A stretch of DNA of 64,000 nucleotides, from assembly GCF_016903815.1 (NCBI RefSeq), contig NZ_CP069974.1; one strand, 5' to 3'. Positions 33,001-39,000 of the stretch are shown here, piece after piece; within the stretch, counting starts at the first letter, position 1, and every line of letters begins with the position of its first letter. A program made the position numbers. This DNA comes from Escherichia coli. Lineage in GTDB: Bacteria; Pseudomonadota; Gammaproteobacteria; Enterobacterales; Enterobacteriaceae.

Positions 33001-36000
33001 CACCGCTGTCGGGATTATCACGGGCAATCCGGACACCATCCTGCATATTATCAGCCAGCAGGCTCTCTCCGTTACGGCTGCCCTGCAGGGCCACGAACTG
33101 CGCATCCCCGCGGCCTTTCACCCGTCCTTCACCGCTGAATCCCCGCAGCCCGTTTCCGTCATCCGTGGTCAGTGGGTTCAGCCAGATACCGGCGGACCTG
33201 CCGTTACGGTCAAACGCCGGCAGTGCCACATACGGCTGCGGATATTTACGTCCCGGTGCAATAAACCGTGCAGGGCTGTCTCCCCCGGCCAGCCCCGCCT
33301 GACGGAGAACGGCACGGCCTGCCGCCACGTCCCGCAGTTCCCGTGCCGTACTGAACAGCCGCTGCGCATTCATGACCTCCCGGTCCGGTTTCGGCTCAAA
33401 CACATCGTGGGCTGTTCCTTTCTGTACGGCATTGTTAATGGCATCCGTCCAGCCCTGACGGTTATCGGTGTACACCTGCACATGCTGCTTCATACGCGAC
33501 AGGGCCACGTAGGCTGACTCAAAGCCTGCCATCAGTTTCCGGTTACCTTCCGTGCCTTCAAGCGCAATGGCAAAGGTTTCACTTGTCCCCTGCGCACCGT
33601 GGGCGGTGATGGCATAGGCCAGGTCAATATGTTGCTCTGCCCGCTCCTGACCGGGGCGAATCACCCGGGTCTGCTGTCCGTCCGACAGCGTGACACTGTC
33701 ACCGGAAACCGCTGTCACCGTCCAGACGCTGTTGGCCACATAACCGCGCTCCCGGTCACTCTTCGTGAAGCGCATCCGGTCACCGGTTCCCACCCGGATT
33801 TTGTCTGGTGTGTACAGTGTGACACCTTCAGCCACCGCCTCCCGGGGCGAAATCAGCCGCGTGTTACCTTCCGCATCCTCCAGGGTTATCAGCCCGTCAT
33901 CCTTGCTGATACCGGCAATCCGGTGATACACACTATCCACCAGGGCAAGGGCATCCGGGTTATTCTCCCAGGTGGAGAGACGACGCAGTTCTCCGTCACG
34001 TATATTCGCTGTGTTCAGGACAGGCACCATGACCTGCTCTTTGCCCAGCTCACCGGCCTTTTCCCGTGCATCATGAATCATGCTGTTCAGTACGCGCCGG
34101 TCCTCATTCAGGTGCGTGACAATCAGCGTCTGCTCCCGTGCTTCCGGTGTCCTGCCGGTATAGTCGCGGACAATGGCCTCATACAGTGTCATGGGGATAT
34201 CCGGGAAAGCCTCGCCTTTCAGCATCGCCTTCTGCTGCGCTTCTGCCAGTTTCGCTTCCTGGCTGTGACTGAACTCCGTCACGGAGTGCTCCGGTGCCCA
34301 TGCGCCCTCCTGACGGGGAACCTGAGACGGTTTCACACTCTCAAGCCCGGACAGTGCCCTTTCCACATCCCGGTTAATCAGGCTGTATACCGCCTCCCGC
34401 AGTTCCGGCGTCTGACGCACAATCTCCTTCATGATGACCACATCGGCAGCACTGCGCGTCTGCTGCAGACGGAAAGGCTGACCGGGCGCGATGGCCTGCA
34501 GCTGGTCCGTGTCACCACTGGCCACGGCACGACCGCCACCGGCCGCAATCAGGGCGTATGCCCGTGCCATATCGGTATTGCCCACCATTGAGCTCTCATC
34601 GAGCAGGAACAGCGTGTTGCTGAAATCCGGCGTTTCTCCGCTGCGCTGCTGCAGCTGCGTGTCATGCAGAAAGGACGCCAGCGTCTGTGCATCCACGCCG
34701 GCGCTGCGCATCTCACCGACCGCACGGTGCGTGGGCCCCAGCCCCACAACTCGGGGACGCTCACTCGCCGGCAGCATGTTCACGGCTGACATCACCGCCC
34801 GGAACTGTGTGGTCTTACCCACACCGGCATAACCCTGTACCACCGTGAAACGGTCGGACGTTTCCAGTATCATACGGGTGGCGGCACGCTGTCCCGACGT
34901 TAACGTCTCCATGAGTTCGCCGGGTACTCTCTCCATCAACGGCGTGACCGCCTCCTTACCTTCGAGAATATGGCGAAGAATACTTTTTTCGGCACTGTTG
35001 CAAATAGTCGGTGGTGATAAACTTATCATCCCCTTTTGCTGATGGAGCTGCACATGAACCCATTCAAAGGCCGGCATTTTCAGCGTGACATCATTCTGTG
35101 GGCCGTACGCTGGTACTGCAAATACGGCATCAGTTACCGTGAGCTGCAGGAGATGCTGGCTGAACGCGGAGTGAATGTCGATCACTCCACGATTTACCGC
35201 TGGGTTCAGCGTTATGCGCCTGAAATGGAAAAACGGCTGCGCTGGTACTGGCGTAACCCTTCCGATCTTTGCCCGTGGCACATGGATGAAACCTACGTGA
35301 AGGTCAATGGCCGCTGGGCGTATCTGTACCGGGCCGTCGACAGCCGGGGCCGCACTGTCGATTTTTATCTCTCCTCCCGTCGTAACAGCAAAGCTGCATA
35401 CCGGTTTCTGGGTAAAATCCTCAACAACGTGAAGAAGTGGCAGATCCCACGATTCATCAACACGGATAAAGCGCCCGCCTATGGTCGCGCGCTTGCTCTG
35501 CTCAAACGCGAAGGCCGGTGCCCGTCTGACGTTGAACACCGACAGATTAAGTACCGGAACAACGTGATTGAATGCGATCATGGCAAACTGAAACGGATAA
35601 TCAACGCCACGCTGGGATTTAAATCCATGAAGACGGCTTACGCCACCATCAAAGGTATTGAGGTGATGCGTGCACTACGCAAAGGCCAGGCCTCAGCATT
35701 TTATTATGGTGATCCCCTGGGCGAAATGCGCCTGGTAAGCAGAGTTTTTGAAATGTAAGGCCTTTGAATAAGACAAAAGGCTGCCTCATCGCTAACTTTG
35801 CAACAGTGCCTTAACAAGTTGTTTGGGTGTTCGAATTTCAACAGGTAAGTTAGTTGCTAGAACCCATGGCTCCTTTGCCGACGCTGAGTAGATTTTAGGT
35901 GACGGGTGGTGACAATGAGTCCGTGTCGAGCGCTGATTTTTTCGGCCTTTAGAGCGAGATTTATACAATAGAATTTGGCATGAGATTGGATTGCTTTTAG

Positions 36001-39000
36001 TCAGCCTCTTATAGCCTAAAGTCTTTGAGTGACTAGATGACATATCATGTAAGTTGCTGATAGGTTTCCAGTTTTCCGCTCCTAGGTCTGCATATTGTAC
36101 TTTTCCTCTTACTCGACTTAACCAGTACCAACCCAGCTTCTCAACGGATTTATACCATGGCACTTTAAAGCCAGCATCACTGACAATGAGCGGTGTGGTG
36201 TTACTCGGTAGAATGCTCGCAAGGTCGGCTAGAAATTGGTCATGAGCTTTCTTTGAACATTGCTCTGAAAGCGGGAACGCTTTCTCATAAAGAGTAACAG
36301 AACGACCGTGTAGTGCGACTGAAGCTCGCAATACCATAAGTCGTTTTTGCTCACGAATATCAGACCAGTCAACAAGTACAATGGGCATCGTATTGCCCGA
36401 ACAGATAAAGCTAGCATGCCAACGGTATACAGCGAGTCGCTCTTTGTGGAGGTGACGATTACCTAACAATCGGTCGATTCGTTTGATGTTATGTTTTGTT
36501 CTCGCTTTGGTTGGCAGGTTACGGCCAAGTTCGGTAAGAGTGAGAGTTTTACAGTCAAGTAATGCGTGGCAAGCCAACGTTAAGCTGTTGAGTCGTTTTA
36601 AGTGTAATTCGGGGCAGAATTGGTAAAGAGAGTCGTGTAAAATATCGAGTTCGCACATCTTGTTGTCTGATTATTGATTTTTCGCGAAACCATTTGATCA
36701 TATGACAAGATGTGTATCCACCTTAACTTAATGATTTTTACCAAAATCATTAGGGGATTCATCAGAGCATGATATCAAAACGCTCTGAGCTGCTCGTTCG
36801 GCTATGGCGTAGGCCTAGTCCGTAGGCAGGACTTTTCAAGTCTCGGAAGGTTTCTTCAATCTGCATTCGCTTCGAATAGATATTAACAAGTTGTTTGGGT
36901 GTTCGAATTTCAACAGGTAAGTTAGTTGCTAGAACCCATGGCTCCTTTGCCGACGCTGAGTAGATTTTAGGTGACGGGTGGTGACAATGAGTCCGTGTCG
37001 AGCGCTGATTTTTTCGGCCTTTAGAGCGAGATTTATACAATAGAATTTGGCATGAGATTGGATTGCTTTTAGTCAGCCTCTTATAGCCTAAAGTCTTTGA
37101 GTGACTAGATGACATATCATGTAAGTTGCTGATAGGTTTCCAGTTTTCCGCTCCTAGGTCTGCATATTGTACTTTTCCTCTTACTCGACTTAACCAGTAC
37201 CAACCCAGCTTCTCAACGGATTTATACCATGGCACTTTAAAGCCAGCATCACTGACAATGAGCGGTGTGGTGTTACTCGGTAGAATGCTCGCAAGGTCGG
37301 CTAGAAATTGGTCATGAGCTTTCTTTGAACATTGCTCTGAAAGCGGGAACGCTTTCTCATAAAGAGTAACAGAACGACCGTGTAGTGCGACTGAAGCTCG
37401 CAATACCATAAGCCGTTTTTGCTCACGGATATCAGACCAGTCAACAAGTACAATGGGCATCGTATTGCCCGAACAGATAAAGCTAGCATGCCAACGGTAT
37501 ACAGCGAGTCGCTCTTTGTGGAGGTGACGATTACCTAACAATCGGTCGATTCGTTTGATGTTATGTTTTGTTCTCGCTTTGGTTGGCAGGTTACGGCCAA
37601 GTTCGGTAAGAGTGAGAGTTTTACAGTCAAGTAATGCGTGGCAAGCCAACGTTAAGCTGTTGAGTCGTTTTAAGTGTAATTCGGGGCAGAATTGGTAAAG
37701 AGAGTCGTGTAAAATATCGAGTTCGCACATCTTGTTGTCTGATTATTGATTTTTCGCGAAACCATTTGATCATATGACAAGATGTGTATCCACCTTAACT
37801 TAATGATTTTTACCAAAATCATTAGGGGATTCATCAGCGTATAGTGTTTTGCAGTTTAGAGGAGATATCGCGATGCATACGCGGAAGGCAATAACGGAGG
37901 CGCTTCAAAAACTCGGAGTCCAAACCGGTGACCTCTTGATGGTGCATGCCTCACTTAAAGCGATTGGTCCGGTCGAAGGAGGAGCGGAGACGGTCGTTGC
38001 CGCGTTACGCTCCGCGGTTGGGCCGACTGGCACTGTGATGGGATACGCGTCGTGGGACCGATCACCCTACGAGGAGACTCTGAATGGCGCTCGGCTGGAT
38101 GACGAAGCCCGCCGTACCTGGCTGCCGTTCGATCCCGCAACAGCCGGGACTTACCGTGGGTTCGGCCTGCTGAATCAATTTCTGGTTCAAGCCCCCGGCG
38201 CGCGGCGCAGCGCGCACCCCGATGCATCGATGGTCGCGGTTGGTCCGCTGGCTGAAACGCTGACGGAGCCTCACGAACTCGGTCACGCCTTGGGGGAAGG
38301 ATCGCCCGTCGAGCGGTTCGTTCGCCTTGGCGGGAAGGCCCTGCTGTTGGGTGCGCCGCTAAACTCCGTTACCGCATTGCACTACGCCGAGGCGGTTGCC
38401 GATATCCCCAACAAACGGTGGGTGACGTATGAGATGCCGATGCTTGGAAGAGACGGTGAAGTCGCCTGGAAAACGGCATCGGATTACGATTCAAACGGCA
38501 TTCTCGATTGCTTTGCTATCGAAGGAAAGCCGGATGCGGTTGAAACTATAGCAAATGCTTACGTGAAGCTCGGTCGCCATCGAGAAGGTGTCGTGGGCTT
38601 TGCTCAGTGCTACCTGTTCGACGCGCAGGACATCGTGACGTTCGGCGTCACCTATCTTGAGAAGCATTTCGGAACCACTCCGATCGTGCCTCCGCACGAG
38701 GCCGTCGAGCGCTCTTGCGAGCCTTCAGGTTAGAGGCCGTCGACAATGATAATCTGGATCAACGGACCTTTCGGCGCCGGAAAGACGACGCTCGCTAAGC
38801 GGCTGCGCGATCGGCGTTCCAAATCGCTGATCTTTGACCCCGAGGAAATCGGGTTCGTGGTGAAAGAAACGGTCCCCATGCCAGCGAGCGGAGACTATCA
38901 GGATCTCCCCTTGTGGAGGGGACTTACGATCGCGGCGGTCAGGGAGATTCGAAGGAATTACTCGCAGGACATCATCATCCCAATGACGCTCGTGCACCCG

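Follow-up and report, generated by a model that had tools for sequence, protein, structure and literature searches.

Two truncated IS10 copies in tandem upstream of aac(3)-IId: a common relic, probably built by IS10 transposase and later clipped by IS26

Two 5′ fragments of IS10, arranged head-to-tail on the minus strand upstream of the gentamicin resistance gene aac(3)-IId, are present in the window, the whole 64,000-nucleotide stretch of Escherichia coli DNA analysed here. The tandem is a genuine and very common relic; it is not a mis-assembly, and it does not represent a novel type of element. It is, with good probability, the fossil of a 2,401-bp unit (IS10 nt 1-1072 and, behind it, a complete IS10) made by IS10 transposase and later clipped by IS26.

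Anatomy of the tandem and of the IS26-bounded unit

The features of the region, with the two IS10 fragments designated copy A (proximal to aac(3)-IId) and copy B (proximal to IS26), are as follows.

34983-34990: left copy of the 8-bp target-site duplication CTTTTTTC, in traI, with the C-terminal half of TraI to its left
34991-35810, plus: IS26, 820 bp, its right inverted repeat adjoining copy B at IS10 nt 955
35792-36658, minus: truncated transposase ORF of copy B, 282 of 402 codons kept, catalytic E292 lost
35811-36765, minus: copy B, IS10 nt 1-955, outside end at 36765, allele T410/A425
36651-36720, plus: RNA-OUT antisense RNA gene of copy B (Rfam RF00240, 98.8 bits, E 1.3e-20)
36739-36792, minus: junction J1, from IS10 nt 1072 (36766) to outside-end nt 1 of the next copy (36765)
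36762-37730, minus: truncated transposase ORF of copy A, 321 of 402 codons kept
36766-37837, minus: copy A, IS10 nt 1-1072, outside end at 37837, allele C410/G425
37723-37792, plus: RNA-OUT gene of copy A (Rfam RF00240), directed towards aac(3)-IId
37838-37846: CGTATAGTG, one surviving copy of the 9-bp IS10 target duplication CACTATACG
37838-37872, plus: 35-nt spacer running from the outside end of IS10 to the ATG of aac(3)-IId, with AGGAG at 37860-37864
37873-38733, plus: aac(3)-IId aminoglycoside acetyltransferase gene
38746-41363, plus: rest of the aac(3)-IId module, comprising an AAA-ATPase (tmrB-like) gene, two small ORFs and a DUF3883/NOV_C gene running into IS26
41364-42183, plus: right-hand direct copy of IS26, 100% identical to the copy at 34991
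42184-42191: right copy of CTTTTTTC, followed by the N-terminal half of TraI, minus strand

Comparison of the region with itself and with a complete IS10/ISVsa5 copy from a public plasmid, used as the IS10 reference, places the tandem at 35811-37837 with copies of 955 and 1072 bp, exactly the coordinates and lengths given in the preliminary description. The two copies carry different IS10 alleles: copy A departs from the reference only by T410C and A425G, and copy B has zero mismatches. The resulting direct repeats of 955 bp each (35811-36765 and 36883-37837) are separated by just two mismatches (36341/37413 and 36356/37428), which rules out chance. The IS10 outside-end 25-mer occurs, as an exact match, solely at 36741-36765 and 37813-37837, with a chance expectation of 0. 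Mapping of window positions 33000-43000 yields IS10 nt 1-1072 and 1-955 alone, with nt 1073-1329 of copy A, nt 956-1329 of copy B and any IS10 inside end absent. The earlier reading of two 5′ fragments in direct tandem, both lacking the inside end, is thereby borne out, as is the claim that IS26 cuts the IS26-proximal copy.

The intact 402-residue DDE transposase (D97, D161, E292) is present in neither copy A nor copy B. Transposase profile matches are incomplete in A and B, spanning 267 and 230 of 340 positions for the NCBIfam profile and 192 and 154 of 200 for the Pfam profile, respectively. Both RNA-OUT genes match the full model (positions 1-70 of 70), each scoring 98.8 bits over a gathering threshold of 41 for RF00240. 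The paired 9-bp target duplication of IS10 is absent from the window, where a single CACTATACG copy is left. With no inside end left, and with the last intact transposase deprived of its C-terminus, the relic is immobile as IS10. It is carried passively in a 7,193-bp pseudo-compound transposon, in which two direct, identical IS26 copies bound the passenger segment, and traI is split by this unit, which is flanked by the 8-bp duplication and then by the two halves of the gene.

Distribution, unit number and alleles

The 54-mer spanning J1 (36739-36792) served as the search probe for relatives. The junction between A nt 1072 and B nt 1 is intact in 262 PLSDB plasmids and is found in 277 of 5,426 complete E. 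coli genomes, plasmids and chromosomes included; it is absent from the GTDB species representatives. PGAP labels the tandem as two partial ISVsa5 transposase pseudogenes. Over 2.5 kb, the tandem region of the window is 100% identical to at least 13 records, and a 25-kb similarity search returned no plasmid colinear with the window, none covering more than 86% of it, and that in many pieces. IS26 cuts B at nt 45, 469, 560, 603, 955 or 1009 across records, with the identical A-B junction behind each cut; the nt 955 form seen in the window occurs in at least 42 plasmids and the nt 1009 form in 238.

At the same site beside aac(3)-IId, about 14 plasmids carry a single complete IS10, which is likely the earlier state of copy A. 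In Edwardsiella CP099740, this complete IS10 is flanked on both sides by the 9-bp CACTATACG. Fuller forms of the tandem exist as well: L011, L014 and L018 retain B in full beyond the A-B junction, as does L013, where IS26 is inserted at nt 906-913. Complete B and A nt 1-1072 together form the 2,401-bp unit. In Klebsiella pneumoniae HKU57, plasmid pHKU57_1 carries this unit inside an IS903-like element, with a perfect 9-bp repeat GGCTGCGCA on both sides, and the empty site, once reconstructed, aligns colinearly with IS903B. Judged from this sequence arrangement, the 2,401-bp unit in HKU57 has moved by transposition in one piece. HKU57 also has a second plasmid, which contains aac(3)-IId, A, B, an ISEcp1 remnant and blaCTX-M-14 in that order, with the same alleles.

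Arrays are composed of three units in L019 and L020, one in L007 and two in the window assembly. These sizes fit homologous recombination and are consistent with gain and loss of 1,072-bp units by that process. The first unit carries C410/G425 and later units T410/A425 in the window and seven sampled relatives; exceptions are L003 and L013, with C/G in both units, and L008, L012 and L018, with T/A in both. This non-uniform pattern suggests that conversion between copies blurs ancestry. C410/G425 was rejected as a lineage marker of copy A, the allele being present in 999 PLSDB records, R100 among them.

Origin of the junction

At J1, A nt 1072 meets B nt 1 exactly at the outside-end terminus, with zero shared bases and no microhomology, and this precise boundary favours IS10 transposase over a slippage duplication. 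The preliminary description considered the tandem not explained by simple IS10 transposition, a view contradicted by a junction lying exactly at outside-end nt 1, as transposase strand transfer leaves it. In the history that we propose, IS10 transposase would have linked B, through its outside end, to nt 1072 of a like-oriented copy A lying 35 bp upstream of aac(3)-IId. The most likely route, with about an even chance of being correct, is that one IS10 inserted into another and the 3′ tail of A was then lost; the leading rival, possible at a clearly lower probability, is an adjacent deletion promoted by IS10. With B intact, the working outside end of A and the inside end of B would have rendered the whole unit transposable, and the array could have added or dropped 1,072-bp units through homologous recombination. 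In the window lineage, IS26 would then have arrived in or beside B and deleted all sequence past B nt 955, inside end included, so that the last intact transposase lost its C-terminus; the relic now rides in the 7,193-bp IS26 unit that inserted into traI.

A nested insertion of IS10 in IS10 predicts two junctions, the first of which (target joined to outside end) is present. The reciprocal junction, GAGGGGATCTCTCAG abutting TATCATGCTGCTAATCG, was sought as the inside end, or the inverted outside end, joined to IS10 from nt 1064 onwards and gave 0 full matches in PLSDB, the GTDB representative genomes and the JGI metagenomes; an IS26 deletion or transposition of the unit would erase it. The inferred 9-bp target, IS10 nt 1064-1072 (TATCATGCT), agrees with the Tn10 hotspot consensus GCTNAGC at two of six positions, the level of a random site. 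This score was counted against the best explanation, yet it was also called uninformative.

Beyond the inside end, the flank of B varies among relatives (an ISEcp1 remnant, IS903, or 9 bp and an IS10), so that its original context is lost and the route cannot be fixed. A more specific history, which we hold only tentatively, starts from B as an IS10 within ISEcp1 upstream of blaCTX-M-14, its outside end attacking A on the same plasmid and the adjacent deletion fusing the two modules. IS10 adjacent deletions, counted in favour of this history, were reportedly described by Roberts, Ascherman and Kleckner in 1991, but they are also said to be much rarer than simple transposition. A single event of this kind would account for both the chimeric flanks and the differing alleles. 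The inside end of B leads into an ISEcp1 3′ remnant and blaCTX-M-14 or -27 in L011, L013, L014, L018 and L007, and IS10-interrupted ISEcp1 upstream of blaCTX-M-14 is documented (PMC4086240, PMC4184694). However, in L020 a further IS10 lies 9 bp beyond complete B, and in L012 B is followed by IS903, which weakens the ISEcp1-blaCTX-M flank as the original context of B and suggests that this flank may be a later gain via IS10-IS10 recombination.

A tandem duplication of nt 1-1072 within one IS10 at its present site, free of transposase and arising through slippage, illegitimate recombination or unequal exchange, is far less probable. The product does resemble a partial tandem duplication, the two units share their alleles in L003, L008, L012, L013 and L018, and both the poor Tn10 target 9-mer and the missing reciprocal junction in the three collections searched would agree with it. 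Slippage or illegitimate duplication, however, would set the breakpoint without regard to the element's termini, usually with microhomology, whereas the boundary here coincides with outside-end nt 1, a position that a random breakpoint would reach about once in 1,300, and lacks microhomology; moreover, the units differ in common IS10 alleles in the window and seven sampled relatives. The earlier suggestion of a duplication/deletion event thus stands for the IS26 deletion, which is part of the history, and fails for duplication of one copy, made unlikely by the differing alleles in most sampled relatives and the absence of microhomology.

The assembly artefact also raised in the preliminary description, with one IS10 fragment expanded to two or the tandem absent from the cell, can be dismissed with near certainty as far as the structure is concerned: although tandem repeats of ~1 kb are a known assembler problem and the real variation between one, two and three units makes a miscount possible in any single assembly, this isolate's included, one IS10 copy by itself could not yield the junction, A and B differ from each other at two positions, and the identical junction recurs in the PLSDB plasmids and complete E. 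coli genomes of many laboratories, with different alleles, six IS26 cut points and, in at least 42 plasmids, the configuration of the window itself.

Known relatives, use as a marker and expression

Over the parts kept, identity to IS10-right/ISVsa5 (IS4 family, the IS of Tn10) is 100% for copy B and 99.8% for copy A. Like IS10, each copy keeps the outside end, the pIN/pOUT region, RNA-OUT and the 5′ part of the transposase gene; unlike it, the tandem comprises two 5′ fragments rather than one element and has no inside end, intact 402-residue transposase or paired 9-bp duplication. In (IS30)2, (IS21)2 and the IS911/IS2 dimers, each right end touches the left end of the adjoining copy, creating a hyperactive junction. 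The tandem shares with these the head-to-tail arrangement of one IS, but its outside end meets a site within the adjoining copy, and end-to-end contact is absent. As in Tn10 nested insertion or adjacent deletion, an IS terminus lies exactly on a new target, and the composite bounded by outside and inside ends is usable as a transposon (pHKU57_1, with its 9-bp duplication); unlike a nested insertion, the tandem keeps only one of the two expected junctions and the target is poor relative to the Tn10 hotspot.

In gene order and flanks, the module matches the IS26-bounded aac(3)-IId (aacC2d)-tmrB module of F plasmids, and it is 99.96% identical to that of pAMA1167-NDM-5. F plasmids of human commensal E. 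coli are listed with "aac(3)-IId (IS26, IS10' flank)" (PMC7407071), and two of them, CP051695 and CP051734, contain the A-B junction. The fuller relatives resemble ISEcp1::IS10 upstream of blaCTX-M-14/-19/-27, the inside end of complete B lying on the same ISEcp1 3′ remnant; the window differs in having lost the 3′ side of B, the ISEcp1 remnant and blaCTX-M to IS26 and in having IS10 nt 1-1072, not ISEcp1, on the outside-end side. Literature searches returned the association of IS10 with aac(3)-IId and ISEcp1::IS10, and did not return the remnant as a two-fragment tandem or its explanation.

The element is ordinary, and no wide-reaching new biology follows from it; the value of the result is mainly one of clean-up, a feature resembling mis-assembly being real and conserved. 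Since unit number truly varies, short-read assemblies will collapse or miscount the 1,072-bp tandem. The tandem can mark lineages of the aac(3)-IId module by its junction, by where IS26 cuts B (nt 955, nt 1009 or elsewhere), by how many units it has and by the alleles they carry. It also ties the module historically to the ISEcp1-blaCTX-M-14/-27 modules, and it illustrates one spot being reworked in turn by IS10, homologous recombination and IS26.

The retained outward promoter pOUT of copy A is the putative driver of aac(3)-IId. The geometry is compatible with pOUT driving the gene, RNA-OUT pointing at the ATG 81 nt downstream with 35 nt of non-IS10 DNA before it. A consensus promoter scan for pOUT or a hybrid promoter gave no sigma-70 consensus site in the region, and manual inspection of the spacer gave TATAGT only, without an acceptable -35. 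Isolates with such plasmids are gentamicin resistant (PMC7407071). A stronger interpretation, which we judge rather unlikely, would make the 2,401-bp IS10(1-1072)-IS10 an undescribed, still-active derivative that spreads as a unit with two copies of pOUT/RNA-OUT, and the relic a doubled RNA-OUT source damping any Tn10/IS10 in the same cell as well as an outward promoter for the resistance gene.

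Anatomy and prevalence of the IS10 tandem

Two IS10 fragments, copies A and B, lie in direct tandem on the minus strand, with nt 1072 of A joined to the outside end (nt 1) of B. Region reading and base-by-base comparison showed that the preliminary description had their coordinates and lengths exactly right. A complete copy from a public plasmid, annotated ISVsa5, served as the IS10 reference.

34991-35810, IS26, adjoining copy B at IS10 nt 955
35811-36765, minus strand, copy B, IS10 nt 1-955, no mismatches to the reference
36766-37837, minus strand, copy A, IS10 nt 1-1072, T410C and A425G relative to the reference
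37873, ATG of aac(3)-IId, 35 nt downstream of the copy A outside end

The fragments form 955-bp direct repeats (35811-36765 and 36883-37837) that are unlike at two positions, and a 25-mer of the IS10 outside end matches only the two expected sites. Both transposase reading frames are cut, with 321 of 402 codons kept in copy A and 282 of 402 in copy B, which lacks E292; each copy contains a complete RNA-OUT gene. In RefSeq the region carries two pseudogenes, both partial ISVsa5 transposases. An autonomous IS10 requires an inside end, an intact transposase and a paired duplication, whereas the tandem has none of the three; because the first two are missing, it is immobile as IS10. The surrounding structure is that of an IS26-bounded transposon.

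A 54-nt junction probe with 27 nt per side, such that any 28-nt seed crosses the junction, found it intact in 262 of 72,556 PLSDB plasmids. Of 5,426 complete E. coli genomes, 277 likewise have it intact, on plasmids as well as chromosomes. The junction of IS26 with B nt 955 recurs in at least 42 plasmids, and identity of 100% across 2.5 kb was seen in no fewer than 13 records. Because the junction is this widespread and copies A and B carry different alleles at two positions, comparison of sequence records excludes the assembly artefact that had initially been entertained, a conclusion that covers the structure rather than the unit count in this isolate. All parts are known, including IS10R/ISVsa5, IS26 pseudo-compound transposons, the aac(3)-IId-tmrB module with its "IS10 prime" flank, and ISEcp1::IS10-blaCTX-M-14. 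The tandem is real, explained and ordinary; its sequence is present in hundreds of public records, and neither the tandem nor a 2,401-bp unit of this kind was found described in the open-access literature.

Transposition of the complete unit and origin of the junction

A second plasmid of K. pneumoniae HKU57 carries A (nt 1-1072) joined to a complete B (nt 1-1329), 2,401 bp in total, without aac(3)-IId. This unit sits in an IS903-like element with a perfect 9-bp repeat, GGCTGCGCA, on both sides. Once the unit and one copy of the repeat are taken out, the site is again colinear with IS903B, and the unit shares its alleles with the copy linked to aac(3)-IId on the strain's other plasmid. The repeat, the restored colinearity and the matching alleles show that the unit moved as a whole, via the outside end of A and the inside end of B.

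The junction itself shares no bases between A nt 1072 and B nt 1, and a random breakpoint would fall at the outside-end terminus with a chance of ~1 in 1,300. This exactness and the lack of shared bases favour the action of IS10 transposase, through cleavage and strand transfer, over slippage or illegitimate duplication. The first unit carries C410/G425 and later units T410/A425 in the window and in seven of the sampled relatives. Since these alleles differ and both are common in nature (C/G in 999 PLSDB records, R100 included), the units look like two distinct IS10 copies joined rather than one copy doubled; other records have mixed patterns, which show that the copies later underwent conversion.

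Two transposase-mediated routes fit the data. One IS10 would have inserted into another, with the 3' tail of A lost afterwards; the tail would drop automatically if a unit from the outside end of A to the inside end of B transposed, as in HKU57. We favour this nested insertion, at about an even chance, since simple transposition happens much more often than the alternative, an IS10-promoted adjacent deletion in which the B outside end targeted a copy A located on its own molecule; we regard that deletion as possible but less likely. The reciprocal junction expected from nested insertion was not found in PLSDB, GTDB representative genomes or JGI metagenomes. The inferred 9-mer is a poor Tn10 target (two of six positions), and the inside-end flank of B varies between relatives.

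Variation among related loci

One complete IS10 occupies the identical site beside aac(3)-IId in ~14 plasmids. An Edwardsiella plasmid has it with a 9-bp duplication, CACTATACG, on both sides, followed by a Tn2 inverted repeat and blaTEM-1. This single copy is a normal IS10 insertion and could represent what copy A looked like before the tandem formed, although a tandem that collapsed later would give the same structure. In E. coli NZ_LT985249.1, a complete IS10 beside aac(3)-IId has an unlike inside-end flank, TGCTGAGCT (locus 7630-7638), which matches the Tn10 hotspot consensus perfectly and adjoins IncC traF, suggesting IS10-mediated rearrangement at the inside end. Enterobacter hormaechei NZ_CP131999.1 (1708-4388) holds two identical complete copies in direct tandem, 9 bp apart, in the order TACAAAGCC, IS10, TACAAAGCC, IS10, TACGAGGCC. 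The second copy may have used the target duplication made by the first as its insertion site, and such full tandems are a possible precursor type for partial ones.

Records with a complete B were retrieved with the junction plus full IS10 as probe. Among these, three K. pneumoniae IncFIA/IncR plasmids and one E. coli IncI plasmid have an ISEcp1 3' remnant and blaCTX-M-14 or -27 after the B inside end; an IS10-interrupted ISEcp1 is documented for blaCTX-M-14 (PMC4086240, PMC4184694).

Behind the same junction, IS26 adjoins B at nt 45, 469, 560, 603, 955 or 1009, depending on the record, most commonly at nt 1009 (238 plasmids); in one record it is merely inserted at nt 906-913 with an 8-bp duplication. 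The pattern resembles what recurrent IS26 insertion and adjacent deletion commonly leave behind. The number of units varies: three are present in E. coli D2 plasmid A and in Raoultella pRpNDM-1, whereas CP088428 has a single one that stops at the IS26 junction of nt 1009, as expected from RecA-type recombination between 1-kb direct repeats.

In Raoultella planticola NZ_CP040184.1 (3884-11228), the last unit of a three-unit array is complete but split by ISKox1. After the array come 9 bp, GGCGAAGCT, and an IS10-left-like copy C (16 mismatches) whose far flank is the reverse complement, AGCTTCGCC, suggesting IS10-mediated inversion. The lone IS10 beside aac(3)-IId in pKOX_R1 (NC_018107.1, 6301-7629) is a hybrid, with a 5' part like copy A and a 3' part carrying the IS10-left-like mismatches of copy C and an identical right flank; it resembles what would remain if such an array collapsed by recombination. 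On the E. coli SEV4 chromosome (NZ_CP154596.1, 2935-5630), copy A is broken at ~nt 649-653, its aac(3)-IId-proximal piece is inverted along with the gene, IS26 cuts copy B at nt 603, and blaCTX-M-14-IS903B lies close by.

The IS26-bounded unit and its surroundings

The tandem is carried by a 7,193-bp IS26-bounded unit (34991-42183), 99.96% identical to its counterpart in pAMA1167-NDM-5 and ordered IS26-[IS10 relic]-aac(3)-IId-tmrB-...-IS26. It interrupts traI and is flanked by an 8-bp target duplication, CTTTTTTC, the whole spanning 34983-42191; the TraI halves, split at ~codon 810, lie one on each side. Because this relaxase gene is split, the F plasmid probably cannot transfer itself.

Plasmids of this arrangement came from gentamicin-resistant isolates (PMC7407071), and two of them contain the junction. 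The 35 nt beyond copy A are the only non-IS10 DNA ahead of the aac(3)-IId ATG, at which the copy A RNA-OUT/pOUT is directed. In Tn10, pOUT activates adjacent genes; given this activity, the spacing, the direction and the resistance of the source isolates, the sequence makes it plausible that pOUT of copy A drives aac(3)-IId. A consensus promoter scan of the region returned no site.

Five IS26 copies and further resistance segments are present in the window.

5222-6041, IS26 copy 1
10482-11301, IS26 copy 2
21154-21973, IS26 copy 3
34991-35810, IS26 copy 4
41364-42183, IS26 copy 5
10482-15428, 17563-18915 and 20379-21153, mph(A) unit and class 1 integron fragments

The pair flanking the aac(3)-IId unit is mutually identical and unlike the other three copies at three positions; one plasmid therefore holds two IS26 alleles. 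Between copies 1 and 2, the segment 6042-10481 contains an ISCR-type (IS91-like) transposase ORF, a groEL fragment and erm(B), and has the same 8 bp, CAAAATTT, at both ends just inside IS26, the pattern expected of an IS26 cointegrate with a circular target. The IS26-mph(A)-mrx(A)-mphR(A) unit, which extends towards IS6100, has a 100% identical counterpart in pAMA1167-NDM-5, and the nearby class 1 integron fragments comprise a sul1/qacEdelta1 region and a piece that matches pAMA1167-NDM-5 between dfrA12 and IS26.
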